DNA from: a bacterium
Lineage (GTDB): Bacteria; Zhuqueibacterota; Zhuqueibacteria; Residuimicrobiales; Krinioviventaceae
NCBI GenBank assembly: GCA_963675755.2
Contig: CAXXMD010000003.1
Location: 1,088,001-1,152,000, forward strand
DNA: 64,000 nt
Direction of reading: 5' to 3'
Part shown: positions 15,850 through 63,106 of the stretch, piece by piece
How the letters are laid out: the number at the start of each line of letters is the position of its first letter
Position numbering within the stretch: the first letter of the stretch is position 1
Translations under genes and position numbers: made by a program
The notes under the pieces: generated by a model
Seen by the model: the letters and a program-made list of their open reading frames with translations, nothing else
The model's database searches: none
Told to the model about the DNA's origin: nothing

Positions 15850-16500
15850 ACCACAGAGACACAATGGACACAGAGGAAAAAATTTCGTTAAATAGGGGCC
15901 ATCTTTTCTCTGTGCTCTCGGTGCCTCTGTGGTTAATTATCAAAACAATCACAATGTAACTGTTAGTATCAAAAAAGATTCCAAGAACAGATATACATTA
16001 CATTTTCAGATCGGCACAGAAATATCTCCTGATCAGTAAAATAACAATTTCAACATGACTGCTTTTTCTTTATCCGTGTCCATCCGTGTGGATCTGTGGG
16101 CAAATTGTTTTTATTCTTTTCCCACGGATCTGCACAGATTTTCACAGATAAAAAATTAATCATAAATTCAATTTAAAAAACTTACCACAGAGACACAAAG
16201 GACACAGAGGAAAAAATTTCGTTAAATAGGGGCCATCTTTTCTCTGTGCTCTCGGTGCCTGAGTGGTTAATTATCATTCCAATCATAATGTAACTGTTAG
16301 TATCAAAAAAGATTCCAAGAACAAATATACAGTAACATTTTCAGATCGGCACAGAAATATCTCCAGATCAGTAAAATAACAAGTTCCACCCGACTGCTTT
16401 TTCTTTATCCGTGTCCATCCGTGTCGATCTGTGGGCAAATTGTTTTTATTCTTTTCCCACGGATCTGCACAGATTTACACGGATGAAAACCTAATCATAA
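15850..16500. repeat. Imperfect tandem duplication (period ~334 bp); each copy holds two hairpins built from triple-CAC arms
   Basis: Copy 1 is 15850-16165 and copy 2 is 16184-16500, near-identical by eye. Arms at +15850, -15933, -16100, +16121, +16184, -16267, -16435, +16456. The ORF track has no ORF here. Confidence 0.92.
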
Positions 16501-16624
16501 TATAGAAACATTCCTCCCGAAATACAACATCAGTTAATATACTTTCCAAACCATAACTCAACCGATAAAACATTCTATCTTTTACAGCAATCCCTCAATC
16601 CATTTCGACAAACACAAAAACATA

Positions 16625-16672
16625 TTGACATTTTTATACAAATATCCTATATTTACTTTGATAGTTATCAAA
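16625..16672 (+). promoter_or_regulatory. Sigma70-type promoter with a 7-2-7 palindromic operator
   Basis: TTGACA (16625)-N17-TATATT (16648), then TTTGATA-GT-TATCAAA (16657-16672) over the predicted start site, upstream of an ArsR-family gene. Confidence 0.75.
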
Positions 16673-16690
16673 ACAAAAACAGGATGCATC

Positions 16691-17707
16691 ATGGAATTAA
16701 AAGAAACCATAAAAATATTAAAGGCCCTGGCAGACGAGTCCCGCCTGCTCATTGCCAATGCGTTGCTTGAAAAGCCCTGCTATGTGGAAGAGTTGTCGCA
16801 GCGGCTCAATCTTTCCATGTCTACGGTCTCTTTTCATCTCAAAAAACTAGAACAGGCCAATCTTGTCTATAAAGAAAAACAGCAGTATTATGTCATGTAT
16901 TATGCTGCCAAACCCATGTTTTTCATTACGCTCGAGAGTCTGATCGGGTTTAAAAATCCGCAAAAACAAAAAGAAGAAGAGCGCATGGACAGCTACATTC
17001 AAAAGGTCATTGCCACCTTTTTTGAAAACGGACGTTTGGTCAAACTTCCCACCCAGCACAAAAAGCGCATCATTGTGCTGGAAGTGATTGCATCCACATT
17101 TGACAAAAGTCACGACTATCAGGAAGCACAGGTCAACGAGCTCATCACATTCATTTATGACGACTATTGCACCATCCGCAGGCTGCTGGTGGATGAAGGA
17201 TTCATGGTCAGAGCAGGTGACCGCTACCGCCTGGTTAAAACCGAGCTCGAAGACGACGAGATCAGGGATGATGCTTTAACCCTGCAAGATATAACTCAAC
17301 ATGTAAAAACAGAAAATGGACATACAATGAAAGACACAAAAAAAGAACTCAAGAGACAATATCTGGACAATCCCCCGCCAATGGGTGTGTTCCAGATCCG
17401 AAACACCAAAAACAACAAGGTGTTTATAGGCTGCAGCGAAAACCTGCCGGGTATGCTGAACCGCTACCGCTTTCAGCTCAAAGTGGGAAGCCATCGCAAC
17501 AAGGACCTGCAAAGCGACTGGAACGAATTCGGGCAGGATTCCTTTGTATTCGAGATATTGGATGTGCTGGAACCCAAAAACGATCCGGACTGGAATTCAG
17601 AAAAAGACCTGCTGGAGTTAAAAGAACTGTGGCTTGAAAAACTGAATCCCTATGACGAATTTGGATACAATAAACACACCAATCTGCAAAACAAAAAGTA
17701 CCTGTAA
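16691..17707 (+). CDS. ArsR/SmtB HTH + DUF2087 + C-terminal GIY-YIG-like domain fusion
   Basis: KALADESRL...STVSFHLKKL (ArsR); LPTQHKKR...DDYCTIRRLLVDEG (DUF2087); MGVFQIRN...KVFIG...LQSDWNEFG (GIY-YIG-like). ATG 16691. Confidence 0.8.
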   Translation: MELKETIKILKALADESRLLIANALLEKPCYVEELSQRLNLSMSTVSFHLKKLEQANLVYKEKQQYYVMYYAAKPMFFITLESLIGFKNPQKQKEEERMDSYIQKVIATFFENGRLVKLPTQHKKRIIVLEVIASTFDKSHDYQEAQVNELITFIYDDYCTIRRLLVDEGFMVRAGDRYRLVKTELEDDEIRDDALTLQDITQHVKTENGHTMKDTKKELKRQYLDNPPPMGVFQIRNTKNNKVFIGCSENLPGMLNRYRFQLKVGSHRNKDLQSDWNEFGQDSFVFEILDVLEPKNDPDWNSEKDLLELKELWLEKLNPYDEFGYNKHTNLQNKKYL

Positions 17708-18261
17708 TGAAACAAACTGTCATCATAGAAACCAAACGGCTGCTTATGCGGCCGTTTCGGTTAAAAGATATAAACGACATTTTAGAATATCGCGGTGATC
17801 CCAAAGTTGCGCGTTATCAGCTATGGGAACCCTTCTCTGCCGACAATACCCGCTTTTTTATCCGTAAATATCAATATGCGCAATTCGGCACACCGGGACG
17901 CTGGACGGGCCTGGGCCTTCAACTCAAATCCACCTCTAAACTGATTGGCGATGTTGCACTCAAAATCTCTCAGGACATTTACCCCCAGGCGGAAATCGGT
18001 TATAATGTGAATCAGCAATTTCAACGTAAAGGATTTGGCAGCGAAGGCGTTACAGCCGTACTGGATTGGGTATTTACAAACACATTGGTCCACCGAATAA
18101 CAGCCGTTTGTGACAGCGACAATACAGCATCTGCCGCACTGCTCGAAAAACTGGGATTCAGACGCGAAGGCCATTTTCATGAAAACGTCTGGTCCAAAGG
18201 CCGCTGGACAGATGAGTATTTGTACGCGTTGTTAAAGACGGAATGGGAAACCTCAAAATAA
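17707..18261 (+). CDS. RimJ/RimL-type GNAT acetyltransferase
   Basis: ETKRLLMRP, AEIGY, NTASAALLEKLGFRREG; TAATG coupling to the upstream gene. Confidence 0.9.
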   Translation: MKQTVIIETKRLLMRPFRLKDINDILEYRGDPKVARYQLWEPFSADNTRFFIRKYQYAQFGTPGRWTGLGLQLKSTSKLIGDVALKISQDIYPQAEIGYNVNQQFQRKGFGSEGVTAVLDWVFTNTLVHRITAVCDSDNTASAALLEKLGFRREGHFHENVWSKGRWTDEYLYALLKTEWETSK

Positions 18262-18330
18262 TTATCAATCCTGGAATGATATTAAACGTGCTTTCTGTTA
18301 TAATTTGATAAACCAACAACCGGAGGCAGC

Positions 18331-18768
18331 ATGAAGTACACCGTAGATATTCTCATCAAACTACCTCGCAATCGAGTCATTGAACTGTTTGACAATCCCG
18401 ATAATCTGTTCAAATGGCAGCCTGAATTAAAGAAATTCGAACCCATAAGCGGAGAACCGGGACAATCCGGTTCAAAATCCAGATTGGTTTATGATATGAA
18501 CGGTCGCAATTTGGAAATGATTGAAACCATCATAAAATACGATTTGCCGGAAGAGTTTTCTGCCACCTATGACGCAAAAAACGTTCACAATCATGTTGTA
18601 AACCGTTTCACGGAAGAAGGAGAATCACTGACCCGCTGGAGCAATGAAAACGTATTTGAATTTAGTGGGTTCATGAAGCTGGTGGGATTTTTTATGAAAG
18701 GCGCCTTTCCCAAACAGACACTAAAAGACATGAACAGTTTTAAAATCTTTGCGGAAGCAGAATCCTGA
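18331..18768 (+). CDS. SRPBCC/START-like domain protein
   Basis: FDNPDNLFKWQP and C-terminal helix DMNSFKIFAE; GGAGG RBS. Confidence 0.8.
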   Translation: MKYTVDILIKLPRNRVIELFDNPDNLFKWQPELKKFEPISGEPGQSGSKSRLVYDMNGRNLEMIETIIKYDLPEEFSATYDAKNVHNHVVNRFTEEGESLTRWSNENVFEFSGFMKLVGFFMKGAFPKQTLKDMNSFKIFAEAES

Positions 18769-18934
18769 AAAATATCAGTTTCGGGTAATTACAGAAAACG
18801 TCTCATCCATAAAAGGCTCGATGGATTTCCAAACCAGGTACCTGTCTTAAAATACATCTCACAGATCTGCGTCTGTTAGCTGATGGTCCATTTCTTCAAA
18901 TATGCCGAGTGACATTGTCTTTCTACAACTAGAA

Positions 18935-19690
18935 TTACAATTTCAACTCTTTATGGACAATATTCTTGAACCGTCCCAAACTTACCGGATGGTCAGCAAC
19001 GACCTTGTTCAGATACAGTATGGCAAATACACCAAATACTCCGGGGTTCCGCTGTGCCTGCTCAGCAGAGGTGATTTTGACGGTATTCACATCCAGTCCC
19101 TTTTCATCACAATAGGTCTGAATATCATTAACAAATTTGGCATTCATGGGACATTGGTCCGAGATCAAAATCGTTAAGCCCTTATACGCATCCAGCTCTG
19201 CTTCCAAAGTAAAAATAGGATCATCTGCCTGATCAAATTTTAGCGCCAACAGCTCAAAACGATCACGGCGATCCACAACCTCAAATCCCTGTGCAGTAAA
19301 CAATGCCCGGCTGGCAATCCATGTGCCTTCACTGGTGACTACGGCAACACCTTTCATACCGCGCGATCTGGCATCTTCAATGCAAGCCTGCACCAGCATG
19401 GCGCCATATCCCTGGTTTTGATAGACCTTGGGGTATACCCAGATACAATGTACAACCATATATCCCTGTGCTTTTACAGCCCGCCAGGCGTGCTCGCCCG
19501 GTACATACTCTATAAAGCCAACGGATTTTCCATCTATAATGATCTGCTTTTGCGTCAATCCACTGGCCGACATTTCTTTGAACCACTCGGTTTTGGGTGC
19601 AAAGCCCACATGCTTGACACTTTTTAAACATCCCAGTCCATATTCCTGCACCGTATCCAGCGTCAACGATTCAATTTTGTATTCTGGCAT
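18935..19690 (-). CDS. YoaP-like GNAT acetyltransferase
   Basis: GFIEYVPGEHAWRAV, CIWV, QNQGYG, SDQCP. Confidence 0.85.
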   Translation of the reverse strand: MPEYKIESLTLDTVQEYGLGCLKSVKHVGFAPKTEWFKEMSASGLTQKQIIIDGKSVGFIEYVPGEHAWRAVKAQGYMVVHCIWVYPKVYQNQGYGAMLVQACIEDARSRGMKGVAVVTSEGTWIASRALFTAQGFEVVDRRDRFELLALKFDQADDPIFTLEAELDAYKGLTILISDQCPMNAKFVNDIQTYCDEKGLDVNTVKITSAEQAQRNPGVFGVFAILYLNKVVADHPVSLGRFKNIVHKELKL

Positions 19691-19768
19691 AATAATTACT
19701 CTCCTTTTAATACTAAAAAATAGGATATTTATAAATGCCAGTCAACGAGTTTGTGGATATATATAAAT

Positions 19769-19801
19769 AAAGGCCTCTTGAAATTCATCAAAAGGCCTTT
19801 T
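19769..19801 (-). terminator. Probable terminator of the 19825-23253 gene
   Basis: AAAGGCCT...AGGCCTTT inverted repeat just past the stop codon. Confidence 0.6.
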
Positions 19802-19824
19802 AGGATTCATCCTTGTTAATTTTC

Positions 19825-22800
19825 TTATCGCATCAAGATCATCTTGTGGGTTGTTGCAAAGTCCTGGTATCGTACACGGCAAAAATACATGCCCGATGCC
19901 GCCTGGTTGCCGTAGGCATCTCTACCATGCCATGTTATTGTATGCTGGCCGGGCTGAACATGTCTATGAATCAGCGTAGTTACTTTGCGACCCTGAATAT
20001 CAAACACCTCAACCACAACCTGGTCCGCTTCCGGTACGTCAAAGGTAATGCGCGTTTCCGGGTTGAAGGGATTGGGATAGTTTGCATAGACAACAAATTC
20101 ATCTATAACCTGTCCCTCTTTTCCGGCATTCCCTTTGGGTAACTTTTCACCTGGGAATTCCGCTTCTTCCCCCATACACGTTTTCATAATATAAATCCAT
20201 TCATCAACGGGGAAATCTTTTTCTAGAGAATCTCTTATAGCCAAGGCTGATTTTTCATCTTTTTCCTGATAATTGTACACAAGCCATGAATCGAACATTG
20301 CCTTTTTTGCCAATTCTGTTTTGGGAAATTGTTTTTCAAGAATGGAATATAATTCAAGGGCTTTATCAAACTGCTTTGTATTGAACATGTGCTTGGCGTA
20401 CAATTCGCACGCCTTACCACCAACCTTTGTTGCTTTACTGTTCATCTCTGATTCATACAGCTGAAATACATTGTTGTCTTTCTCCTTTGATTTGTGATAA
20501 CATTTATTAATCAAACTCAGTGCCAGTGAGGCGCCGTGATCGTTTGGATACTCGAGAACAATGGTTTTAAAAATACCAATAGCGGCATTGAAATCTTTTT
20601 CCATTATCATTTTATACCCATTGTTCAGTAACTTCTTTGCACCGGGATCTATAGTGATCATGTCCTCCACAGCCTGTTGAACCGGATCATTCACCACCGC
20701 CTTACTCAGGTAAGGAACCGTACTTACGTCACCATAAACAAGTGTATGATCGTCCCAAGAATTATACTCGGCATAAATTGTTGCATTCAGTAATGAATAA
20801 ACATGAAAAGTAGTATTGTCATAAAAATTGTTTGCTGAAGGGCACCCATTATTATACCAACCTAATATCGGGCAGGAATTACTGTCAATGTAAACTCCAT
20901 AGCTGCTGTTATCATGTATTTGGTTGTGCCCGTAATTCGTTTCGCTAAACAGATCAAAATGTGACCCATTATAGCAAGATATCCCATACCCAACATTATC
21001 ATAGATATTATTGATATAAATTCGTGGATATGAATCATATAGATAAATACCACGATTTGAAGAATTATAAATATTATTATTTGCAAGGTCAATTTTATCG
21101 TCACAACAATACAAGAAAATATTGCTATTCGTGTTGGAATAAATATCATTATTTTCAATATAAAAAGTTGTGTTGGGATAACCTATGAATAAACCATAAG
21201 AATTTTGTCTAAAAGAATTATTCTCCATTGTCAAAGCAGTTGTTGCCTCAGGGAAAAAACTATGAAACCCATATTCATTATGATGTATATCACAATACTG
21301 GATTGTTGGCCACGCTTTGTTTGTATGAATACCATAAGTTGCGTTTTGTATATCACAATATTCTAGAATACAATCCGCGTCAATACTCGAATCATTAAAA
21401 TTAAGGCCTCCCCATGTACCGGAGATTGAATTAAAAGTAATCATATTGCCGGACTCGCCTTCAGCAATGAGTGTACCGTTGACTGTTATTTTCTTTCCTG
21501 AAGGAATTCGTATTGTTGAACCAGGCTCAATAGTTAAAATCAAACCGGCAGGTACGGTAACATCTCCGGTTAATGTATGTGTACCTGACCAGATTTGGTT
21601 ATAAGGAAGTGAACCGGAAAAGGTTAATGGTTTTGGTGTAGGATCAGCTAAATATGTTTTTTTGCTTTCAAGAAAACGATTATATGCCGGAATTCGCTGG
21701 TCCAAGTTGGTTTCAGGCCCAACAGCCGGCCAGGTATAACTCGCATCTAAAAAGTCAGGCCTAGATGAATAATAATAAGATACATCTGCCAATTCACATA
21801 CATATCCGAACATTGCATTTAAACTATGAGTAACTGGTTGTGTATAGCTATTTTTGTACCCAAACAAATCCAATATTGGGAGGTGGTCAGCATCATAAAT
21901 CAATGCTTTTTCATCTGAAAAGTCATCAGCAATATTACCAAGAAAGGACCAGTTTTCCATTGCTTTTAATGTAATTTCATCCTGATCATAGCAATAGTTT
22001 CTGACAAACGTATTGTAAAAACCATTTGCGCCAAAATGATCATCTGCGCCAATTTCCTCAACGATGTTTTGCTCAAACAAGTGGCCACAGGGCCATTTGG
22101 CGTGTAGATCAAGGTCGCGATAGGTAATATCATTATCAATTCCCCAACACTGACTCCACGTTTGTTCGCGAGAATAATTAAATGTCCAAACATTACAATT
22201 TGACCCGCCACCGGCAACCAGGGAATGACGCAAAATACGAAAAATATTATTCTCAACAAGACAATTCGTAGTACTGGTAGCCAAATTAACACCATACCCC
22301 CAACCGCCGCCACAATAAGCCATTGCCTCGTGTAAATAGCAGCCGGATACCTCACAATGAGTTGATCTGGAAAACGCTATATGGCTACACGACGGCTTGT
22401 AAGAATCCACACCCCTGACCCAGCAATTGACAGCAATATCAAAATTAATTTGATTGGGATGCCCATCATCTGCCATAAGATACGGCGACCTCTCAATTCT
22501 CAAATCTTCGATACCGATGCTTTGAACAGGATTCATTTTTCGAACTTGGAGTGGCATATCTTCAGCATCATTATCATAATAGTACTGGTTAGCTTCATCT
22601 TTGATATCTATCCAGGTGCCAGAACCATCAACCGCATCAATCTTTGATATTTGTCCGACTATGTGAGTTTCAGGATCATCTCCATCATAACGATAATCAT
22701 AATTTTCCACTACAAAATGTACCCAATCATTAACAGTCCAAGTACCGGATACCGGGTATAAACGTTTATCACCTTTATTAAGAGCGCCATTTACATCTAT

Positions 22801-23253
22801 CCAACTATCAGCAGAACCATAAATATTGAAACAGGCCAGATTGTGTATACCTTGAAAGACAAGTGTTGTGCGATCAGACCCTGCTCCCTGGAAGACAATA
22901 TTGCTACATGTGTTGTCCAGAGTAACAGGCGTATCCAGGTAATATGTTCCCTCAAGGAAATGAATAATTGCCAGTCGGCTGGGATTTGTTGGATTTGGAT
23001 CTCCACCAATAAATGCTTTTGCCTGTACTATTTTAGCCTCTACTTCCGCATAATCATCAGCAGAATTGCCATTAACAATATAAACCTGGACCGGACCGAA
23101 AGAACCGGGCTCTTGTAACAATCCGGCATTGTACCAGGGCACCTGGTGGGAAGCCGGTATATGCCCCACCCCATTATATAATGTTTGACTATAGGCTATT
23201 ACGCTAAAAACAAAAATAAAAAGAGTTGACAGATTACATACATGTTTTTTCAT
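19825..23253 (-). CDS. Secreted right-handed beta-helix protein with TPR-like region and FlgD/T9SS-like C-terminal sorting domain
   Basis: Signal peptide; beta-helix-like repeats (NCWVRGV, NCLVENNIF, NNIYNN); helical region; NYPNPFNPET...VFDIQGRKV...ASGMYFCR. Confidence 0.75.
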   Translation of the reverse strand: MKKHVCNLSTLFIFVFSVIAYSQTLYNGVGHIPASHQVPWYNAGLLQEPGSFGPVQVYIVNGNSADDYAEVEAKIVQAKAFIGGDPNPTNPSRLAIIHFLEGTYYLDTPVTLDNTCSNIVFQGAGSDRTTLVFQGIHNLACFNIYGSADSWIDVNGALNKGDKRLYPVSGTWTVNDWVHFVVENYDYRYDGDDPETHIVGQISKIDAVDGSGTWIDIKDEANQYYYDNDAEDMPLQVRKMNPVQSIGIEDLRIERSPYLMADDGHPNQINFDIAVNCWVRGVDSYKPSCSHIAFSRSTHCEVSGCYLHEAMAYCGGGWGYGVNLATSTTNCLVENNIFRILRHSLVAGGGSNCNVWTFNYSREQTWSQCWGIDNDITYRDLDLHAKWPCGHLFEQNIVEEIGADDHFGANGFYNTFVRNYCYDQDEITLKAMENWSFLGNIADDFSDEKALIYDADHLPILDLFGYKNSYTQPVTHSLNAMFGYVCELADVSYYYSSRPDFLDASYTWPAVGPETNLDQRIPAYNRFLESKKTYLADPTPKPLTFSGSLPYNQIWSGTHTLTGDVTVPAGLILTIEPGSTIRIPSGKKITVNGTLIAEGESGNMITFNSISGTWGGLNFNDSSIDADCILEYCDIQNATYGIHTNKAWPTIQYCDIHHNEYGFHSFFPEATTALTMENNSFRQNSYGLFIGYPNTTFYIENNDIYSNTNSNIFLYCCDDKIDLANNNIYNSSNRGIYLYDSYPRIYINNIYDNVGYGISCYNGSHFDLFSETNYGHNQIHDNSSYGVYIDSNSCPILGWYNNGCPSANNFYDNTTFHVYSLLNATIYAEYNSWDDHTLVYGDVSTVPYLSKAVVNDPVQQAVEDMITIDPGAKKLLNNGYKMIMEKDFNAAIGIFKTIVLEYPNDHGASLALSLINKCYHKSKEKDNNVFQLYESEMNSKATKVGGKACELYAKHMFNTKQFDKALELYSILEKQFPKTELAKKAMFDSWLVYNYQEKDEKSALAIRDSLEKDFPVDEWIYIMKTCMGEEAEFPGEKLPKGNAGKEGQVIDEFVVYANYPNPFNPETRITFDVPEADQVVVEVFDIQGRKVTTLIHRHVQPGQHTITWHGRDAYGNQAASGMYFCRVRYQDFATTHKMILMR

Positions 23254-23281
23254 AATAAAATCCCCAATTTTTTGTATTCAG

Positions 23282-23950
23282 TTAGAAATTATAGCCAATA
23301 TTGAATAAATAGCCCTCAATTTCATCATATATTCTAATAGTATCAGAGCTTTGACGTGCATCTATTGCTTTTTCAATGCTCAAAGAAAAGAAATAACTTT
23401 TATAGACTATCTTTCCTCCAAAAAATAGATTTTCGAATCCCTCAACCCTTCCATCAACGCGTTCATAATCATAATCATATTCACCCTGATCATTTGGTTC
23501 AAGTTTTATCACTCTTGATTTATTTATTTTATTATTATTTGATAATGGGATCATCAGATTATACCCACAATGAAATTCGAGACTAGTTTGATTGCTTATT
23601 TTTTTTGTAATACCTATCTGTAGAGGAATTTCAACAAAAAGCAAATTGATATTAATATCTCCTTTTTTAAAGTAGTTGTCCATTTGATTTAAATTTGCTT
23701 CCCAAATTCGATCTTTTAAAGATATTCTAATATTTTGCAACTTGAGACCGCTTCCCACAAATCCGCCAAACTTTGAAAATGGGTAGTAATCTAATCCCAA
23801 TCCCCCGGAAATACCATAACCTGGCGTACAGCTTTCGTGGCGGAAGGTTGACCGGTTGACACCCACTTCCACATATTTTACGGTTTTAGCCGTAACATTT
23901 TGTGCAACAAACAGAACAAGCGCCCAACAAAAAATTTTTAGAGTATTCAT
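23282..23950 (-). CDS. Probable outer-membrane beta-barrel protein
   Basis: Signal peptide, EIPLQIG, C-terminal FNIGYNF with terminal Phe. Confidence 0.65.
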   Translation of the reverse strand: MNTLKIFCWALVLFVAQNVTAKTVKYVEVGVNRSTFRHESCTPGYGISGGLGLDYYPFSKFGGFVGSGLKLQNIRISLKDRIWEANLNQMDNYFKKGDININLLFVEIPLQIGITKKISNQTSLEFHCGYNLMIPLSNNNKINKSRVIKLEPNDQGEYDYDYERVDGRVEGFENLFFGGKIVYKSYFFSLSIEKAIDARQSSDTIRIYDEIEGYLFNIGYNF

Positions 23951-24170
23951 AATTCACTCCTTTTTAAATAAATGTCTTTAGTGTAAAAAATGGCTATGGC
24001 GGTATCAAGATTTTTCCCCTTGCTTTCATATTGTACCCCACAGTACATAAGCATCTCTTTGCGAATTAGATTACAGTATTCACGTGTAGTACGACCCTGT
24101 GTAGCGCTGAATTACAAGTGAGTTCCCTCGTCACTCGTTAAAATTTACGCATCCAGCACTCTTCTTTTTT

Positions 24171-24199
24171 AGAATAAATAAAAATTTTAACTTTGTCAA
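24171..24199 (-). promoter_or_regulatory. Sigma70-type promoter for the 23950/23253 genes
   Basis: Minus strand TTGACA (24199-24194)-N17-TATTCT (24176-24171). Confidence 0.6.
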
Positions 24200-27486: not shown

Positions 27487-27564
27487 TACCATCTCCCTAA
27501 TATTTTCAATTTCCTGGTTAATAATAATAAAGAAAAAAGGAATCACAAAATATTGCTGGGTGAA

Positions 27565-34452: not shown

Positions 34453-34549
34453 CTCTCCGAAAAAATTCTTTATTAAAACCAAGTAATCATCATATAGACC
34501 AGAATTGAGGTCCTTTAGTTAATTGGCGGGTGTGCCTCAGCTTTTAACA

Positions 34550-34615
34550 GCCCGGTTCCTGAGTTCGAGCGAGTCCGCCTTTTAGCGGACGAGCAAGAGT
34601 ATCGAAGGACCGGGC
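34550..34615. repeat. GC-rich nested hairpin (REP-like)
   Basis: Outer stem GCCCGG(T)TCCT/AGGACCGGGC encloses inner stem GTCCGC-CTTTTA-GCGGAC. Confidence 0.55.
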
Positions 34616-34627
34616 GGTAATAAACAA

Positions 34628-34647
34628 ACCACAGAACACGCGGAATG
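34628..34647 (+). repeat. Direct repeat copy 1 (CAC-arm variant)
   Basis: ACCACAGAACACGCGGAATG; 18/20 identical to 36695-36714. Confidence 0.65.
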
Positions 34648-34910
34648 AATAGAAAGAACTTTATTTCGTTTGTTCGTCGCAGACGCACATATTGTAATCT
34701 ATTAATAATGTTCCATTGAAACATCACTACCCACTTCTGGATTGATTATCTCGACTAATTTTTTTATATAATCGTTTTGGTATATACTTTTCTTGACTTT
34801 TTAAAAACTATTTGATTTATTATAAAAGAAACTTTAGGGAAGGGGCTCTCTTGTTTAAAAATAATTACTATTATTTTTGCTAATAGAAATAACATCAAAA
34901 GAGGAATTCT

Positions 34911-36641: not shown

Positions 36642-36694
36642 AATAATCCATCATTAGAGTGGTCTATAGCTCTCATGTGAGATGTAAATAACAG

Positions 36695-36714
36695 ACCACA
36701 GAACTCGCAGAATG
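36695..36714 (+). repeat. Direct repeat copy 2 (CAC-arm variant)
   Basis: ACCACAGAACTCGCAGAATG, continuing GCACAAAG. Confidence 0.65.
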
Positions 36715-36921
36715 GCACAAAGTTTCAGATTTAAAAAGCCTAAACAATCTCTCCTATTTATGAAAACAAATATCGTTTGATTCTTTCATGATTTTTCTAT
36801 TTTATTCGTTTGAATATTATTACTCCTTCAAAACAACAGCGCAAAAAAAACTAACACTTTATTAAAAAAAATTATATATTTACAAACACACCTGACAAGA
36901 ATCAACCCGGAGATTTGACGG

Positions 36922-53293: not shown

Positions 53294-53325
53294 CAAAACT
53301 CCTTTTATTATGATATTATATTTTA

Positions 53326-54723
53326 TTATTCAGTCAACAGTGCAGATTCCGGAAGTTTAATCCCCAATTCATCCGTCAACTCGAGCACCTTGGAAAGTAT
53401 TCTGGATTCTATATCAGCAGTCCAGGTAGATGGCAGGTCATACACAATCTGTGACTGGGCACCTTCATACCCGCCTTCACGTAAAATCTGAACAGTTGGA
53501 ATGTACGCCATCACATCGTTACAATATCCCATCACAATCGTATTCTCACCAAACATTCGTTTTAACTGGATGGCATAATCCACAACCACCTCACCGCCTA
53601 GCGCGATAAGGGTCTGCTCTCCCATTTGCCAGATCTGAACGGGATAAGGATAGGATTGGGGAATGGGTTGACCTGCATCCAGCTTTTGCACCATTGATTG
53701 TGCCCATCGGCGTTCAAATCCTTTTGTGGAATCCGCGGCCAATTTTTCAAGCAGTTTGCGGTCCGGAAGAGTCGCAAAATCCAGATCAACATATCCAAAG
53801 GTACATTGCAGTTTGGGAGAAATCTCTGCTGCTGGATTTTCGATTACATCCTTGACTGTTGACGCCAATGCTTTACCATACTTTTCGGCAAGCGATACCT
53901 TGCGTCTTGGAAGCGGATTCTGGTCCGCACCACAGCCCTGAAAAAACATGGCAGTGGTTCCGGGAAACATATTCTCCACTTCGATCTGGGCAAACCCCGG
54001 ATAATCTCCGCACCAGTCATATCCGTTCAAAACCGTTGCATGACAGGCATAGCCAAAAACGGTAGCCCGCATATTATCGGGATTATGTATCTGTATAACC
54101 GGTACGGTGTAATCATAGGGGCCTTTCTGATCTTTCTTTTTTGGCAGTTTTTTACCGGACCTGTTGTTCCGGCGGTTAACCGCAAAATCTACAGTGCCCT
54201 GGGAAGAGTGTATGGTAACCGGATTCATATCTTTTAAAGCCCGGCCAATCAATTGTACAATTTGGTCTTCCAGGTGGCGGGAATATTCATCAATTTGCTG
54301 AACATGTTCAAGAGTTGTAGGGTATACTTTATCCAGACTGCTACGGAGTGCCGGTCCGGAATGGGTATGTGAACTGCTCAGTATAATTCGTGATCGGTCC
54401 AACCCATAAAAGATTTCACATTCCTCAAATATCTTGTCCGACATGTTTTTGGGCAAGCCCAGTATATCAATAGTAACAATTACACCCAGATTTCCGGCCT
54501 CATCCTGAACTGCCAGCGCTTTTGCCCACAAGGGATGCAAAGCACCAGTAGCTTCATGCACTCTTGACGAGTATCCTGCCATCCACATTGGGTGCTCGGG
54601 TGTAATATCAATTTTTGCTACTCCAGCCTGCCAACCCAAACTGTCATTAGTTTCTGAAGCCTGAATGCTGAAAGCTAAAAGTGTTAAACAAATTATTGAA
54701 ATTTTGAACATTTGTATTTTCAT
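53326..54723 (-). CDS. Neutral/alkaline ceramidase N-terminal-domain family amidohydrolase
   Basis: AGVAKIDITP, SHTHSGP, YACHAT, QGCGADQNP, GEVVVDY, EGGYE. Confidence 0.85.
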   Translation of the reverse strand: MKIQMFKISIICLTLLAFSIQASETNDSLGWQAGVAKIDITPEHPMWMAGYSSRVHEATGALHPLWAKALAVQDEAGNLGVIVTIDILGLPKNMSDKIFEECEIFYGLDRSRIILSSSHTHSGPALRSSLDKVYPTTLEHVQQIDEYSRHLEDQIVQLIGRALKDMNPVTIHSSQGTVDFAVNRRNNRSGKKLPKKKDQKGPYDYTVPVIQIHNPDNMRATVFGYACHATVLNGYDWCGDYPGFAQIEVENMFPGTTAMFFQGCGADQNPLPRRKVSLAEKYGKALASTVKDVIENPAAEISPKLQCTFGYVDLDFATLPDRKLLEKLAADSTKGFERRWAQSMVQKLDAGQPIPQSYPYPVQIWQMGEQTLIALGGEVVVDYAIQLKRMFGENTIVMGYCNDVMAYIPTVQILREGGYEGAQSQIVYDLPSTWTADIESRILSKVLELTDELGIKLPESALLTE

Positions 54724-54771
54724 TTATATACCTGGTGTATAATGATTCTTTTGTTGGTGGCTTTAAAAACA

Positions 54772-54808
54772 ATTGGTGTAAATTTGTGTCATTCGTTTTT
54801 TTCGTGTT
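54772..54808 (-). repeat. Degenerate solo CAC-arm
   Basis: Minus strand reads AACACGAAAAAAACGAATGACACAAATTTACACCAAT (9-10 nt period). Confidence 0.4.
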
Positions 54809-54869
54809 CTATCACTTAGTATCTTAAAACTAACATTTACCCAAACTTTTCAACCAGGATCTCTTCTAT

Positions 54870-55856
54870 TTACTGTATTGGTACATGCTTTTCAAAAAAC
54901 TTTTGCATATAATACAGACAATAATCATTGACCGGTTTGGCAAGATCCATGGTATGCGGCCACCATTTTAAACGATGGTACTCATTTTCTACACCGGCTT
55001 CTTCCAGTTTTTCCTGCAACATATCTGCCTGGCGTATAGGTACCAGTTCATCTTTGGTACCGTGGAACGTCAAGGTTGGTGGATCATCCGGGGTGATATA
55101 GCTAATGGGAGATGCTTTTTTGTATGCATCGGGATTTTCCTCCCATGTCTGTCCAATGAAATTCACTGTTAATTTATGAGTATGCGCGTATTCGGTGGTC
55201 AGGTCTACAGGACCATAAAGGTTAACAATGGCCTGAGGTTTACTGCTGATAGAATCCATATCACAATCAATATCAAAATCAGGAACATCAGATGAATACC
55301 CTACCATCATGGACAAATGCCCACCGGCAGAGCCGCCAATTACCGCAATCTTGTTCGGATCGATCGAGTATTCTGCAGCATGGGCTCGAATCCAGCGGAC
55401 TGCGCATTTTACATCCTCAACCGCAGCAGGAAATGGTGTTTTTAATCGATAAGATATTGTTGCGGTAATATAACCCTGTTGCGCAAAATGGAGTAAATAG
55501 TACAGATAATCTTCTTTTTTACCTTTTCGCCAACCGCCACCATGAATAAAAATCAAAACCGGCTTTGGGCTTTCCAATTTTGCGGGTTGATAAATATCGA
55601 GCCCGAGTGTATCGTCATTAATGGTTTTATAAACAATATCTTTAATCTCGGTAATCTCGTCAGGTACCTGGGGTTCAGTGTTAACCAGTTTCAGCATACC
55701 GGTTGCATACGCGGCTTTTAACATCCACATTGCAGGGTAGCCCTTGGGCTGTTTGGGAGCATCATTGTCATCATCAGAAAAGGCAATTCCAAACATCAAA
55801 AAAATGATCAAAATGGTAACAGTAAAAACTTTTCCCCAAAGATTATTTTGTCTCAA
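54870..55856 (-). CDS. Alpha/beta hydrolase (HSL-like/BD-FAE-like esterase)
   Basis: HGGGW, GGSAGGHL, HGTKDELVP, C-terminal His; TTG start behind GGAGG. Confidence 0.9.
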   Translation of the reverse strand: MRQNNLWGKVFTVTILIIFLMFGIAFSDDDNDAPKQPKGYPAMWMLKAAYATGMLKLVNTEPQVPDEITEIKDIVYKTINDDTLGLDIYQPAKLESPKPVLIFIHGGGWRKGKKEDYLYYLLHFAQQGYITATISYRLKTPFPAAVEDVKCAVRWIRAHAAEYSIDPNKIAVIGGSAGGHLSMMVGYSSDVPDFDIDCDMDSISSKPQAIVNLYGPVDLTTEYAHTHKLTVNFIGQTWEENPDAYKKASPISYITPDDPPTLTFHGTKDELVPIRQADMLQEKLEEAGVENEYHRLKWWPHTMDLAKPVNDYCLYYMQKFFEKHVPIQ

Positions 55857-56011
55857 TTTTCCTCCATATCAGCGATTGGAATATAATGTTGTCAGGTTAA
55901 TAATCTAACCAGAATATCTCTATTTCACAATACAAAAGGGAGACCTGGATCAATAATAGAGAAAATTTGCTTTTTGTAAAAAGAGAGGAATATGAGAATA
56001 TAAAACACAAA

Positions 56012-56048
56012 GGACTATTATATGCAGTAATTATACATATAATAGTCC
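56012..56048 (-). terminator. Probable terminator (13 bp perfect stem)
   Basis: GGACTATTATATG-N11-CATATAATAGTCC, followed on the minus strand by TTTGTGTTTT. Confidence 0.65.
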
Positions 56049-56073
56049 CAATAGGTATAAAGATTATTAAATA

Positions 56074-57993: not shown

Positions 57994-58011
57994 AATTTCC
58001 CCGCTAAATCC

Positions 58012-58905: not shown

Positions 58906-59027
58906 TATAAACCCCTTAATTATTCAAGAAAAGACATATCGTAACCCGGTGATTGTCTTAACATGTTATCAAATTTTTCAGAGCAAGTCAAGAGGAAATT
59001 GAATTTTTCTATCCTAATCGGATTCTG

Positions 59028-60671
59028 CTATTTTTCAGAACGCAGAATATCTTCCAGTGGAATACGCTGAAAAACAAGATCCGCGTGACTACTTTCATAC
59101 AAAATCCCAATGGTCTTTTCATCAACAGAGGTTATGCAGGAATAGCCCCTGCCCCGCCCTTCATCCAGCAGCAGCCAGTGTTCTTTGGGCCAGGTTTCAC
59201 AATCATCAAAACTGACTTTGAGGGTAATATGGTGCCTGCTGTTTCGGTCACTGGGATTCGAAAATAATAACAACTGCTTCTTTTCACCGTTTTCCATATA
59301 GATATGTTTGTGCAGACTTGCCATACATGCCGGTTCAATTAACGCGTTCCGTGATGTTGGGTGCTCAGTCCAGGTTTCACCCAAGTCCTTACTTACAGAT
59401 ACCACACGTCCATTATCTTTACCCATATTACCGCGGTTTCCAGGATATCGCATATTCGACATGATGGAGCCATCGGCCAATTGTACTACCATATTCTCAT
59501 TGGTTTGCGTTCCGGCGAAATTGCTGCTTTTCCAGGTCTTTCCACCATCTTTACTATATGCAATATTTGAAAACGCAGCCCCGCTCTCATCCCGCCCTTC
59601 TCCCGGGAAAACCAAAGTTCCATCATCCAGGGTAATACCGTGACCGGGAGCAACAGTCCATAGCCACCAATCTTTATCTTTGACCATGCGTGTCAGATTG
59701 CGTGACTTGCTCCAGCTCTGTCCGTCATCCGTACTTGTCGTCATTAACAACTGTGCGGTTTGCTTTATATTCCATCCCGGTTGACTGCCTTTACGCCTCC
59801 ACTGGTGCTCCCATGCTGTACTGCTTTCATCCAGACCCTTGATCCATTTCCCGGTTGTATCCAGCACTCCATACATCCATAAGCCGGCTACAAAAATTTT
59901 ATCCGAATTTTTATCCACCAAAATACAGGCATCACTGACGCCGTTATATTTTTGCGGCAGACCACCCCATTCACCCATATCCAAAACTACACGCATGGGC
60001 TCCCAAGTCTGGCCATTATCCGTACTGCGGCTGAGACCGATATCAATATCTCCCTGCAAATCCCGACTGCTCCCACGACGCGCATCATAAATTGCCAGCA
60101 ATGTGCCGCTATTGGTGGTCTCTAATCCGGGAATGCGATAGGTATGCACATTATCATCCATATGGTCACGTACGGAAACACCCAGTCGATGTTTAATTGC
60201 AACCGGATTTGAGTTCTTCCATATGGAACCATCAGCGAATTCAATCTTTTCACAAATGACATAAAAGGTTTGATGCAGATCTGTTTCAGGGTCTAGATCC
60301 ACACAAAGCAGCAGCGTATTGCTGCCGGATTGCAAGGCCAGTTCTCCGTTCATACTCACAGATCCATCAGGATTTGAAATCTCTGCAAACACTCGTGGAT
60401 TTTCAACATCTTCTAACAAGGTATCCGTGCCCAGATACCAGAGCCGGGCGGCTTGGATTTCTTTTCCCTGAATCGAAAATCGCACCGATTTTACTTTCGC
60501 TTCGGTATTAGTCTCAGGCTTAATCAATTGTATCCGGTACACCGGATTATCAGATTTATTGATCAGCACAGGCACCTGCAAAGACCTGGCGAAAACTGTA
60601 ATATCTGTATTAATAGACTGGCAGGATAATGTCAACAGCAGGATTAATAAAAGGGGGAAATACTTTTTCAT
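59028..60671 (-). CDS. Sialidase (GH33), lipoprotein
   Basis: YRIP, Asp boxes (STDNGQTW, STDDGQSW, SKDGGKTW, SKDLGETW, SFDDCETW), GYS; start ATG 60671. Confidence 0.92.
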   Translation of the reverse strand: MKKYFPLLLILLLTLSCQSINTDITVFARSLQVPVLINKSDNPVYRIQLIKPETNTEAKVKSVRFSIQGKEIQAARLWYLGTDTLLEDVENPRVFAEISNPDGSVSMNGELALQSGSNTLLLCVDLDPETDLHQTFYVICEKIEFADGSIWKNSNPVAIKHRLGVSVRDHMDDNVHTYRIPGLETTNSGTLLAIYDARRGSSRDLQGDIDIGLSRSTDNGQTWEPMRVVLDMGEWGGLPQKYNGVSDACILVDKNSDKIFVAGLWMYGVLDTTGKWIKGLDESSTAWEHQWRRKGSQPGWNIKQTAQLLMTTSTDDGQSWSKSRNLTRMVKDKDWWLWTVAPGHGITLDDGTLVFPGEGRDESGAAFSNIAYSKDGGKTWKSSNFAGTQTNENMVVQLADGSIMSNMRYPGNRGNMGKDNGRVVSVSKDLGETWTEHPTSRNALIEPACMASLHKHIYMENGEKKQLLLFSNPSDRNSRHHITLKVSFDDCETWPKEHWLLLDEGRGRGYSCITSVDEKTIGILYESSHADLVFQRIPLEDILRSEK

Positions 60672-60841
60672 AGAATCCTCAATATTTAAACATATAACAA
60701 GCACAAAGAAAAACAAAATCTTTTTATTTATAAATCAGTTTAATCAACTTTTGTTTAAATACGTTTTTCACATGATTTGAAAAAATGACAACCATGAAAT
60801 CATTATTAGAAATCAAACACCCAACCTGACTTTTTCTTTCT

Positions 60842-60917
60842 CTTCGTATCCTTCGTGACCTCTAGTTGTTTTTTTCTCAACCAAATCCAAACCACAAAGA
60901 ACACGAAAGACACGAAG
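60842..60917. repeat. Pair of inverted triple-CAC arms with a 22 nt spacer
   Basis: CTTCGTATCCTTCGTGACCTCTAGTTG (60842-60868) and ACCACAAAGAACACGAAAGACACGAAG (60891-60917). Confidence 0.85.
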
Positions 60918-60924
60918 AAAAAAA

Positions 60925-61296
60925 TTATAGAACATATCTCTTAATTCCATCTTTGAGCAGTTCTACATTAAAATTTATCAACAAACCCGTAGAAATCTTG
61001 GCAAGCTTCATATACGTTAAAAGTTGAGCTTGATGAATAGGCTTTATAAAATCAACCGATTTCAATTCTATAATTAACTTATTTTTTACCAATAAATCAA
61101 TTCTAAATCCACAATCCAATTTTACACCTTTATAAATAATTGGTATGGATTTCTGAACCTCAAATGGAATTTCCGCCAGGGCAAATTCTCTGGCTAAACA
61201 TTGTTCATAGGCAGATTCAAGCAATCCCGGACCCAATGTTTTATGTACATTTATAGCACAACCAATAACCTTGTTTGACAATGAATCAAAATTCAT
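60925..61296 (-). CDS. GxxExxY protein (PD-(D/E)XK nuclease-like fold)
   Basis: VHKTLGPGLLESAYE, RIDLLV...IIELKSV, HQAQLLTY, GLLINFN. Confidence 0.95.
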   Translation of the reverse strand: MNFDSLSNKVIGCAINVHKTLGPGLLESAYEQCLAREFALAEIPFEVQKSIPIIYKGVKLDCGFRIDLLVKNKLIIELKSVDFIKPIHQAQLLTYMKLAKISTGLLINFNVELLKDGIKRYVL

Positions 61297-61358
61297 AAAC
61301 TCCCCCTCTGAGTAATTATATTATACGATAGAAATCAAGTCTGATTGTTTTGCTTTTC

Positions 61359-61433
61359 CTTCGTGTTCTTCGTGAACTTTGTGGTTCTATAAACATTTAA
61401 TAATTGACCACGAAGGACACGAAAGTCACGAAG
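61359..61433. repeat. Pair of inverted triple-CAC arms with a 21 nt spacer
   Basis: CTTCGTGTTCTTCGTGAACTTTGTGGT (61359-61385) and ACCACGAAGGACACGAAAGTCACGAAG (61407-61433). Confidence 0.9.
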
Positions 61434-61440
61434 AATTCTT

Positions 61441-62121
61441 TTAAATAATTATATCAGATATGTCATAATTATAATCTTTAATCTTTATAAGATTTAAATT
61501 CCAAATAATAAATAAAACATCAAACTCAACTTTATTCCTTTTTAGTAATGTAAATAATTGTTCCATTCCTATCCTTATATCAATTGGAACGACAGGAACA
61601 TTACTATATATCAACAACCAATTGTATGTAAACAAATTATAATTCTTAAATTTTTCAGTCTTATTTATTATAGTTTCATGAATACACTTTGCCCAATCAA
61701 TTTCCGGTTGTATACCACATGAAGGCAAACCTATTAATCTTTTTTGGCTTGAATCCAAAGATTTGATTATCTCATCATTCTTTTTCGAATTATTTTTGTT
61801 ATTTAATGTAGGTTCCAAAATTCCTTGTGGATGCCTTTTCTTCAATATAGACAAAGCTCTTTTATATTGCTCTGTACTTGCTTCAGTAAATTCAATTCCA
61901 ATTGAATATCCATTAAACCTTATTTCAAAATCTGATTTGTCGTGATGAACAATTTCAAAAGGATAATTTATTATTGGACACTTTATTATATTTGCTAATA
62001 GACGTACTAATGCCCATTTTTCTACATCTTTCTTTTTGTTACCATTCTCATGGTTATGAATAAGTTTATATTTTTGAATAAATATATTCAAATCTTTATT
62101 ATTTATTAAATTGTATTCCAT
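61441..62121 (-). CDS. Very AT-rich hypothetical protein, possible restriction-endonuclease-like fold
   Basis: 226 aa ORF; DKSDFEI...IGIEFTE resembles a (P)D...E nuclease core. Confidence 0.55.
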   Translation of the reverse strand: MEYNLINNKDLNIFIQKYKLIHNHENGNKKKDVEKWALVRLLANIIKCPIINYPFEIVHHDKSDFEIRFNGYSIGIEFTEASTEQYKRALSILKKRHPQGILEPTLNNKNNSKKNDEIIKSLDSSQKRLIGLPSCGIQPEIDWAKCIHETIINKTEKFKNYNLFTYNWLLIYSNVPVVPIDIRIGMEQLFTLLKRNKVEFDVLFIIWNLNLIKIKDYNYDISDIII

Positions 62122-62166
62122 TTTTAAATATATAATTTTTTATCCATAAACATTGAAAAATATTTC

Positions 62167-62193
62167 CTTCGTGGTCTTCGTGACCTCTGTGGT
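62167..62193 (-). repeat. Triple-CAC arm
   Basis: Minus strand reads ACCACAGAGGTCACGAAGACCACGAAG. Confidence 0.85.
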
Positions 62194-62234
62194 TATCTTT
62201 GTTTTTTATAAAATCAAAATTTAAGCTGGAATTC

Positions 62235-62831
62235 CTATATCGAAAACACCAAACCTGTTTTGATTTTCAGAGTTGACTTTTTTTCATAATCATCTATATC
62301 ACGAACACCATATTCGGTATGAATACGAAATCCAATCGAATATTTGGAGACTTGCTTTTGAATGAGCATTGATCCCGAAATAAACCAAAAGGCTTCACCC
62401 CAATAACCATGTTCATCACTCCCGCATTTCTCTTGTGAATAGCCTAGTCCAACCTGTGGTAATCCGGTAATATCACCACTGACCGAAAATTGTTTCCCAA
62501 CCAATAATTCGTTTACATTATATGTATACAAGTAATCAACATCCCTGGTATAGTATAACTTTCCTTTCGCGTAATAATTCATAGTCGAAGCATCATGATA
62601 TGCTTTTTCTACACGGAAATGTACATCCAAGTGAGGAATATATACAGGGACTGAAAATCCGAACAAGAATGCACTGGAACCTACATCAAGCTCACAACCA
62701 GGATAAACGGTTATTGTAGGATTGGGTAAATAGCTCATTCCCATTTCAATATTTACAATTTCTGCCTTTAACGGTGAGATTAGAAATAACACAACAAAAC
62801 AACATACAACCAAAACTTTTTTTGAATACAT
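62235..62831 (-). CDS. Hypothetical secreted protein, probable small outer-membrane beta-barrel
   Basis: Signal peptide (LKA-EIVN), amphipathic strands, C-terminal KTGLVFSI; GGAGG RBS. Confidence 0.6.
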   Translation of the reverse strand: MYSKKVLVVCCFVVLFLISPLKAEIVNIEMGMSYLPNPTITVYPGCELDVGSSAFLFGFSVPVYIPHLDVHFRVEKAYHDASTMNYYAKGKLYYTRDVDYLYTYNVNELLVGKQFSVSGDITGLPQVGLGYSQEKCGSDEHGYWGEAFWFISGSMLIQKQVSKYSIGFRIHTEYGVRDIDDYEKKSTLKIKTGLVFSI

Positions 62832-62975
62832 AACTCCCTCCTGTTTGTACTGCTTTACAATAAAGACTTAAAATTTGGTATAACAATCCCCAAGTTTTAC
62901 TATTTACTAAATATATTATATAAACGGAATGAAACCAATAAATTTTTCAAAATATCTTAAAAAGTAAATTACTTT

Positions 62976-63106
62976 TACAAAGGATACGAAAGGCATACAG
63001 AAAAACAAACTCCATTTCTTGTCTGTCAGTTTAATCAACTACTAATTAACTTTTAAGCATCCAACCAGATTTTCTTTCTCTTCATGGTCTTTGTGTCCTC
63101 TATGGT
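62976..63106. repeat. Degenerate gene-less unit bounded by inverted triple-CAC arms
   Basis: TACAAAGGATACGAAAGGCATACAG (62976-63000) and CTTCATGGTCTTTGTGTCCTCTATGGT (63080-63106); the interior resembles 60701-60868. Confidence 0.65.

Follow-up and report, generated by a model that had tools for sequence, protein, structure and literature searches.

Word-array arms around GxxExxY genes as candidate ends of selfish nuclease cassettes in a bacterial genome

During the analysis of a 64,000-nucleotide stretch of a bacterial genome (G000; 6.48 Mb in 3 contigs, 39–40% G+C), that is, C3:1088001-1152000 (hereafter designated the window), we found that its intergenic DNA carries short arrays of a 7-nt word, here called arms, and that two such arms in inverted orientation enclose a gene for a small protein of the GxxExxY family. 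The arms are the two ends of gene-holding cassettes, a point absent from an earlier note on this DNA, and the unit is composed of a forward arm, a cargo, and a reverse arm. Cassettes of this build recur through the genome, their words go together with the lineage of the enclosed GxxExxY protein, and the cargo between arms has been gained, lost, or swapped between G000 and a genome of the same genus (G001). We favor, at a probability of roughly 55%, the reading that these are selfish nuclease cassettes, the arms of which would be cognate binding arrays; most of the ~151 arms in the genome would then be gene-less, captured, or decayed copies, and the arms would act as hot spots of cargo loss, gain, and exchange.

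Arm grammar and genome-wide abundance

Each arm begins with [A/G/C]CCAC and continues with two further CAC (at times CGC) units; more exactly, it contains usually three (2–6) copies of the 7-nt word C-R-C-R-R-A-D, in which the four bases after C-R-C are specific to the class. The start-to-start spacing of the words also depends on the class, being 8–9 nt for AG words and 10 nt for AT words. The earlier note had described a shared grammar of [A/C]CCAC plus CAC units 8–10 nt apart; the grammar itself was confirmed, whereas the spacing is class-specific rather than uniform, and the measured period of 8–10 nt gives no clean helical turn, in contrast to the spacing near one turn that had been suggested.

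The regular expression CCAC.{5,7}CAC.{6,7}CAC matched 117 times in the whole genome. On contig C3, the same expression gave 97 matches, compared with 12, 8, and 10 in three Markov-3 simulations, and in the 556 kb outside open reading frames (ORFs) of at least 110 aa it gave 74, compared with a mean of 0.2 (maximum, 1) in 20 Markov-2 simulations, so that the counts lie far above the simulations both in C3 and in intergenic DNA. When the shared grammar was written as CRCRRAD ×3 with a spacing of 8–12 and at most one mismatch, 163 matches were obtained against 29 in the reversed sequence; 135 of the 163 are outside the ORF mask, i.e., in ~9% of the genome, and most of the 28 'coding' matches resemble chance matches. 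The exact grammar pattern matched 34+47 times in G000 against 0+1 with the pattern read backwards, and it was well above this backwards control in 40 of 41 related genomes. An unrestricted scan for any 7-mer repeated three times at 8–12 nt returned 1053 loci, mostly of AT-rich or coding periodicity, and was rejected as too noisy.

The arm catalogue, compiled with four nhmmer profiles together with the grammar, holds ~151 arms in the genome, compared with about 0 in intergenic Markov controls. By word class, these are 75 AT, 56 AG, 19 AA, and 1 other, and their distribution among the contigs is very uneven (128 in the 3.64 Mb of C3, 18 in the 2.45 Mb of C2, and 5 in the 0.39 Mb of C1). A single shared model therefore captures every sub-type distinguished in the earlier note. 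In three metagenome runs, moreover, the summed contig depth over 61212-61445 of the window, at the CACGAAG junction, is ~9 times that of the flanks (89–102 versus ~10 in X1 and X2), and this community therefore contains many more copies of the arm family, or many more organisms that carry it. One metagenome contig covers the whole stretch and may be its source. Metagenome joints consisting of a forward arm, 6–27 other letters, and a reverse arm were not used as evidence; their sides are just 25–27 nt long, and they probably derive from other copies or organisms.

Arms around GxxExxY genes

Eight genes of G000 matched TIGR04256 over the cut-off, and all of them also matched PF13366 (E values from 3e-28 to 1e-43), the gene in the window scoring 153.4 bits against the TIGR04256 cut-off of 35. 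All eight are located between inverted word arrays, each with its own word, namely, CACAGAG/CACAAAG for G000_1, CACGAAG for G000_2 (the gene in the window), CRCAGATAAA for G000_3 and G000_4, CACGAAT for G000_5, CACGAAT/CACGGAT for G000_6, CACRGAT for G000_7, and CGCAGAG for G000_8; around G000_3, reverse-type arms were found on both sides within the 260 nt read. The gene is always placed between the arm tails, with the CCAC ends facing outward. At least three periodic units of one word were present on both sides at 26 of 88 loci from this and 40 related genomes and at 49 of 80 loci from a cross-phylum set (see below), as opposed to none of 150 random ORFs of G000; with at least two units on both sides, the corresponding counts were 52/88 and 68/80 versus 13/150.

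Each major class of gene-less arms (CACAGAG, CACGAAG, CACRGAT, CACGAAT, CRCAGATAAA, and CGCAGAG) has a resident gene of the same word. The few CACAGAA/CGCGGAA arms, at 34.6 and 36.7 kb of the window, have no resident GxxExxY gene with that word. Among the 41 related genomes, 38 contain GxxExxY genes, and the relatives carry many further partial or stop-containing matches, as expected if selfish genes are decaying. G029, which has no GxxExxY gene, gave 1+1 grammar matches, i.e., the control level.

Word class and protein phylogeny

Eighty further loci were taken from the related genomes, and their flanking words were labelled by hand before the tree was built. The tree of 87 proteins from this and the related genomes (one row shorter than 100 aa being left out) consists of two clades with 43 and 44 members, each with a Shimodaira–Hasegawa-like approximate likelihood ratio test (SH-aLRT) value of 99. 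The clade of 43 comprises all 41 hand-labelled AG loci and 2 unlabelled ones, and the clade of 44 comprises all 24 AT, 7 AA, and 7 CAGGAT loci together with 6 unlabelled ones. The labels change 13 times on the tree, compared with 40.8 times when shuffled, and none of 200 shuffles was as low. Comparable results were obtained in a label-free recount by regular expression, where AG words outnumbered AT words in 43/43 members of the first clade, and the second clade gave 26 members with AT>AG, 15 ties, and 3 with AG>AT. The contrast between AG and non-AG amounts to one event on the tree, and these results therefore show long retention rather than repeated co-switching.

The cross-phylum set was obtained by scanning one genome per species, which yielded 446 relatives of the window protein; the best 80 of the 446 (60–73% identity) were used, and their record titles name Planctomycetota, Verrucomicrobiota, delta- and gamma-proteobacteria, Binatia, Chloroflexota, Bacillota, and others. 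At least four AG-class words were present in 78 of the 80, and at least four AT-class words in 6 of the 80; the former count is free of circularity, the protein having been the sole criterion in the choice of the loci. For the 26 of 53 GAAG loci that were parsable on both sides, the amino-acid identity is 0.70 and the third-codon identity is 0.376, which is near saturation, and in 16 of these 26 the third word ends at −3 to +1 nt from the start codon. The same words are thus found in hosts of many phyla while the silent sites have turned over, indicating a selection tied to the element itself.

Pairing and folding of arms

Arms occur in three settings: tail-to-tail, head-to-head, and alone or with a decayed partner. 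Tail-to-tail pairs (6 close pairs) consist of a forward arm, a short loop or gene, and a reverse arm, and head-to-head pairs (21 close pairs) consist of a reverse arm, a gap of ~7–29 nt (commonly ~11), and a forward arm. Four head-to-head pairs (C3:2261800, 2253001, and 638120 and C2:1173984) are heterotypic, mixing two word classes; a head-to-head pair is therefore the junction of two neighbouring units rather than a unit in itself.

In the 25 of the 27 close pairs that were parsable, facing words are identical at 435 of 525 positions (0.83), in contrast to 20 of 99 (0.20) for linkers of the same length, and left and right arms have different linkers that are constant within a family. The earlier note was thus right that paired arms agree at the CAC/GTG units and disagree in the linkers. 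The A/G at word position 4, the one freely varying site, is unmatched between facing words (14/11/14/16, Fisher p=0.59), so that this purine test, which was used as a substitute for the R-scape analysis proposed in that note, revealed no covariation. As single strands, the pairs fold well, with z values from −4.8 to −9.0 and 0/200 shuffles as good. The words being kept, the linkers not, and the position-4 purine unmatched, selection therefore acts on the words rather than on base pairing, and the view of arms as iterated protein-binding sites is supported only indirectly.

The stability of the stems might also be explained by a device acting at the RNA level, as in the ORF-bearing intervening sequences (IVSs) of 23S rRNA, in which the arms pair in the transcript to form a long stem around the ORF, and the stem is processed (e.g., by RNase III) or hides the ribosome-binding site. 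The arms occupy the 5′ and 3′ untranslated regions of the gene, the AG-class words and linkers resemble Shine-Dalgarno sequences (GAAGGA, AGAGGA) and abut ATG in many relatives, and an IVS with an ORF inside its stem is known, according to a passage in PMC4990558. Such a device is highly improbable, since the variable word position shows no compensatory change and the linkers are unpaired, since specific words and not mere complementarity are conserved across phyla, and since single arms and heterotypic junctions would be unable to pair. Furthermore, the AT-class genes have a separate ribosome-binding site, with the arms 30–80 nt upstream.

Comparison with a congeneric genome

G001, a complete genome from the same genus, has flanks that are 87–93% identical to those of G000. 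At 60923-62162 of the window, the GxxExxY cassette and a second cassette with a 226-aa ORF are represented in G001 by ~145 nt between the same outer arms. At 15943-16596, G001 lacks the CACRGAT junctions as well as the second CACAGAG pair and retains the first CACAGAG pair with a different loop; the segment 34466-36842, including both lone arms at 34.6 and 36.7 kb, is present only in G000; and the degenerate arm site at 54628-54876 corresponds in G001 to 3081 nt with two extra genes and no arm. Overall, five differences larger than 200 nt were found in the window between 14.5 and 57 kb and between 58.5 and 64 kb, and arm sites are involved in four of them.

Similar differences were observed elsewhere in the genome. 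The left and right arms of the G000_7 site are common to both genomes and enclose the GxxExxY gene in G000 and, in G001, a lipoprotein-like frame of 143 codons. A 3.5-kb region at C3:39.2-42.8 kb, consisting of two cassettes between CACGAAG arms, one with a 223-aa ORF and the other with an S9 peptidase, is missing from G001, in which a single junction is left, and a gene resembling glycoside hydrolases (GH-like) between CACRGAT junctions at C3:113-115.8 kb is likewise missing. The Rhs-tip and immunity-like cassettes between junctions at C3:637-642 kb have no synteny with G001, and a stop shortens the G001 counterpart of G000_5 to 77 codons. That inter-arm DNA differs in this manner between close relatives points to a kind of mobile DNA.

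At the G000_8 site, a gene-bearing cassette in G000 is opposed to an empty two-word CGCAGAG hairpin in G001. This state is what a homing-type element would produce, in which the nuclease cuts an intact gene-less palindrome and repair from a gene-bearing copy puts the gene between the half-sites, with loss of the target. The invariable position of the gene between the arm tails and the abutment of arms on the start and stop codons in many relatives would agree with such an element, homing endonucleases of the PD-(D/E)xK type exist, and I-Bth0305I is among the weak fold matches of the GxxExxY protein (E 0.15). We nonetheless consider homing improbable, because it leaves unexplained the multiplication of empty palindromes and the arms around unrelated genes; moreover, the empty hairpin of G001 has just two words and a decayed partner, which a deletion fits equally well.

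Fold of the GxxExxY protein

The AlphaFold2 model of the GxxExxY protein in the window (pLDDT, 92.2; pTM, 0.85) shows a generic PD-(D/E)xK core. In the VIA comparison, the best match was 3ijm_B (Z 8.1; root-mean-square deviation, 3.1; 98 aligned), and further matches included Cas4-like proteins, restriction enzymes, and Hjc at Z 6–7.6 (Hjc, 6.3), with many nucleases at Z 5–7.6. A Foldseek search of PDB gave Hjc as the best match (E 2.7e-3) and none at or below 1e-3; the likeness to Hjc is weak, and it would name the fold and not the function. By sequence, PDB contained no solved relative, nothing being better than E 0.66. The residues E30 (of GxxExxY), D70, and K82 are invariant in the eight paralogs, and the Glu of ExK is present in seven of them. 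From the model, the GxxExxY protein is confidently predicted to have the fold of the PD-(D/E)xK nuclease superfamily.

Proposed mode of action and opposing evidence

In the reading as selfish nuclease cassettes, two inverted arms with the CCAC ends outward enclose the cargo, the defining one being the gene for the small GxxExxY nuclease of predicted PD-(D/E)xK fold. Each nuclease lineage would recognise its own arms, the words of which would form an array of binding sites, and cut at or near them, and the repair and recombination systems of the cell would then move, delete, or exchange whatever sits between two arms. Pairs without a gene, lone arms, and arms surrounding other genes would be non-autonomous, captured, or decayed copies, on which a resident cognate nuclease could act in trans. 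More tentatively, the sequences may even represent a separate class of mobile elements, occurring in many phyla, in which a PD-(D/E)xK nuclease of ~120 residues, with neither transposase nor integrase, would read the words in the arms of its own cassette, the word class would shift with the lineage as an evolvable code, and the arms would capture and exchange host genes in an integron-like manner.

Several observations weigh against the cassette reading. The AG/non-AG split would also be given if the gene and its arms were inherited as one unit, and, within the AG clade, GAAG and RGAG loci are barely clustered (19 changes versus 22.4 when shuffled, as low in 4/200, on a poorly resolved tree). 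Accordance between sub-types and GxxExxY paralogs, as proposed in the earlier note, is thus found at the coarse level, where each of the eight genes has its own word and AG versus AT/AA/CAGGAT is the deepest split, and hardly at the finer one. The word identity of 0.97 among the 26 GAAG loci is circular, because the loci were picked by their words. No GxxExxY match was obtained in G015 (90% complete) or G037 (94% complete), in spite of their 42 and 20 exact arms, respectively, and gene number and arm number per genome are weakly correlated (Spearman 0.28, p 0.07, for 41 genomes whose kin are not independent). Most CACRGAT arms enclose other genes (GH-like, an Rhs tip with an immunity-like ORF, and unknown ORFs), and CACGAAG arms enclose an S9 peptidase. 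G000_6 (C3:1577646-1578020) has V-I-K instead of E-x-K and thus no ExK Glu. The comparison with G001 involves two genomes and no outgroup and hence gives differences, not polarised gains or losses; a large difference between the two, at 19832-23780, is without any arm, and, at the sites compared, no target-site duplication was recognised and no clean empty site was defined.

Part of this evidence would suit host-serving elements like the repetitive extragenic palindromes (REPs), the arms being bound by a host protein or serving as terminators or mRNA-end hairpins, recombining passively as repeats, with GxxExxY as a frequent passenger. The majority of arms are gene-less or surround other genes, arms occur where no gene was detected (G015 and G037), the gene/arm correlation is weak, and the hairpins fold far better than shuffles. 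Some pairs are terminator-like, e.g., C3:2387742-2387813, positioned between a preceding stop codon and a T run. Host service is an unlikely explanation in our judgment, since all eight genes here and most relatives elsewhere are bracketed, in contrast to 0/150 random ORFs, and since word class tracks protein clade. The words also travel with the gene through many phyla at saturated synonymous sites, for which one host factor common to all would be needed, and the unpaired linkers and the non-covarying purine would make a poor plain terminator stem.

A search of the literature (supplements excluded) found neither these repeats nor a function of the GxxExxY family described; four 16-nt arm strings led to unrelated animal studies only, and the family name led to a passage, off topic, on a gene label in a reverse transcriptase survey. 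In a 2012 survey of the PD-(D/E)xK superfamily, the table row for the family gives the function as 'Unknown' (PMC3424549). GxxExxY/PDDEXK_3 is a very large family across phyla, and a countable DNA partner provides it with a testable function, i.e., whether paralog X binds or cuts word X. If the cassette reading is true, a common class of intergenic repeats would be accounted for, and arm sites would be hot spots at which close relatives gain, lose, and exchange genes. The match of word class and protein clade could further give a small natural set of sequence-specific DNA binders or cutters, the specificity of which is readable from the genome. New in the present analysis are the genome-wide catalogue with controls, the test of word class against clade, the lack of pairing covariation, the heterotypic junctions, and the exchange of the cargo held by conserved arms in two congeneric genomes.

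Relation to known systems

The arrangement is most easily set beside REP/REPIN sequences and their RAYT genes (REPtrons), in which a low- or single-copy gene of nuclease type is flanked by inverted short repeats, the repeat is also dispersed intergenically as many gene-less copies, often in inverted doublets (as are the arms here), and distinct gene lineages go with distinct repeat classes. Unlike RAYT, an HUH enzyme of the Y1 type, the enzyme here has a predicted PD-(D/E)xK fold, and no CAC arm occurs within 3 kb of any of the four Y1_Tnp (PF01797) genes of G000, two of which are visibly accompanied by their own palindromes. A REP is a 20–40-nt palindrome with a GTAG or CGTC tetranucleotide at one end, as described in a part of PMC3733652, whereas the arms here are tandem word arrays starting with CCAC, carry no GTAG or CGTC tag, and enclose varied cargo genes.

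With integron cassette arrays (attC, IntI), the elements share promoter-poor cassettes of one or two genes, imperfectly palindromic junctions, and a content that varies between close relatives. In contrast to integrons, no integron integrase over the cut-off was found in G000 (best TIGR02249 score, 81.4 bits versus 265), the junctions, as judged by eye, are two word arrays, sometimes of different classes, and the arrays are dispersed rather than assembled at one attI platform. The IVS of Coxiella burnetii 23S rRNA with S23p, as treated in a passage of PMC4990558, is similar in having a small ORF of unknown role between stem-forming inverted repeats and in behaving as a selfish insert; it differs in that the elements of the window lie between protein genes, contain another ORF family, and have word-array arms without compensatory changes.

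Gene-bearing autonomous copies beside many short non-autonomous copies with inverted repeats are also seen in miniature inverted-repeat transposable elements (MITEs) and their parent insertion sequences, and a nuclease gene inside its presumed recognition sequence recalls free-standing homing endonuclease genes. Unlike the former, the unit contains no DDE or other transposase, the GxxExxY nuclease being its sole enzyme, and no target-site duplication was seen at the sites compared with G001; unlike the latter, there is no intron or intein context, and the arms capture unrelated genes.

Arms and cargo in the window

The arms of the window and the genes between them are listed in Table 1. There are 17 arms in total, 14 clear and 3 decayed (54.8, 60.85, and 63.09 kb), and all are intergenic with respect to the listed ORFs of the window. 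Every repeat site named in the earlier note was found, in each case between ORFs; the arms at 34.6 and 36.7 kb do not form a pair but are two single arms in the same direct orientation. The arms of the GxxExxY cassette are 33 nt in length and 85% complementary. The window gave 0 matches in an Rfam gathering scan and 0 in a tRNA scan, and it contains no rRNA.

Table 1 Arms and enclosed genes in the window (positions in nt from the first letter of the window).
Position	Strand	Feature	Remarks
15850-15934		Gene-less tail-to-tail pair, word CACAGAG	Arms 15850-15876 (+) and 15908-15934 (-); loop, 31 nt; DNA fold z -5.2
16071-16149		Head-to-head junction, word CACRGAT	Arms 16071-16101 (-) and 16121-16149 (+); fold z -4.8
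16184-16268		Copy 2 of CACAGAG tail-to-tail pair	Arms 16184-16210 (+) and 16242-16268 (-); part of ~334-nt tandem duplication
16406-16484		Copy 2 of CACRGAT head-to-head junction	Arms 16406-16436 (-) and 16456-16484 (+)
34628-34656	+	Lone arm, AA class	ACCACAGAACACGCGGAATG..; third unit decayed
36694-36722	+	Lone arm	GACCACAGAACTCGCAGAATGGCACAAAG; direct orientation relative to 34.6-kb arm
54775-54809	-	Degenerate reverse arm	GTG units, CACGAAW-like words
60840-60868	-	Degenerate reverse arm, word CACGAAG	Found in G001 too
60890-60917	+	Forward arm, low-coordinate end of GxxExxY cassette	AACCACAAAGAACACGAAAGACACGAAG; directly beyond stop codon of the gene; kept in G001
60925-61296	-	GxxExxY gene (G000_2), 123 aa, predicted PD-(D/E)xK fold	TIGR04256 and PF13366; not in G001
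61358-61386	-	Reverse arm	CCTTCGTGTTCTTCGTGAACTTTGTGGTT; 62 nt upstream of GxxExxY start codon
61407-61434	+	Forward arm of following cassette	Head-to-head junction with 61358-61386; fold z -4.8
61441-62121	-	Cargo ORF, 226 aa, no family	Not in G001
62166-62194	-	Reverse arm, closing the 226-aa cassette	Kept in G001
63078-63107	-	Degenerate reverse arm	CTCTTCATGGTCTTTGTGTCCTCTATGGTT; E 0.012; small indel versus G001 directly behind

The 226-aa cargo ORF has no Pfam or NCBIfam match, and Atlas contains hypothetical-protein clusters only for it. Immediately upstream of the 34.6-kb arm, at 34500-34620, a G+C-rich structured stretch (..CCTGAGTTCGAGCGAGTCCGCCTTTTAGCGGACGAGC..) was noted, which is no tRNA and matched no Rfam family in the scan of the window; a similar sequence (CCTGAGTTCGAGTGAGTTCGC..) occurs near the single arm C3:1072143, at C3:1072300-1072330. 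The region 19832-23780 contains minus-strand ORFs of 1142 aa and 222 aa; the syntenic place in G001 is occupied by 3.3 kb of other DNA, in which neither ORF has a counterpart at E<=1e-20.

Additional repeats and genes elsewhere in the genome

Between two CACRGAT junctions at C3:640523-641685, there are two ORFs of 253 aa and 129 aa. The former matches the end of the RHS repeat-associated core (31 bits; cut-off, 32.5), and the latter gives a weak match to the Bfi1 immunity family (24 bits; cut-off, 100); the two together look like an orphan toxin-tip/immunity cassette.

One of the Y1_Tnp (RAYT-like) genes, at C3:340349-341500, is flanked by its own REP-like palindromes (GATCGTGACGGAG...CTCCGTCACGG), which form a repeat family distinct from the CAC arms. 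A further repeat of ~150 nt, composed of several small hairpins (TCCGTCCCAAATTCGATTTGGGACGGA, GCAAAGCTCTGCTTTGC, and CTGCCCAAATACAATTTGGGCAG), was found at C3:115505-115664, 112985-113134, and 115858-116007, and reads as a false ORF 'LRPKFDLGRN..'. It stands next to some CACRGAT arms and is a separate family, with 13 blastn matches in the genome, only 3 of which are beside a CAC arm. In G001, the loop of the first small hairpin of this ~150-nt repeat contains an insert of ~270 nt (G001:C1:4679560-4679830) with inverted ends (CAGACAGTG...CACAGTCTG), which looks like another MITE-like element.

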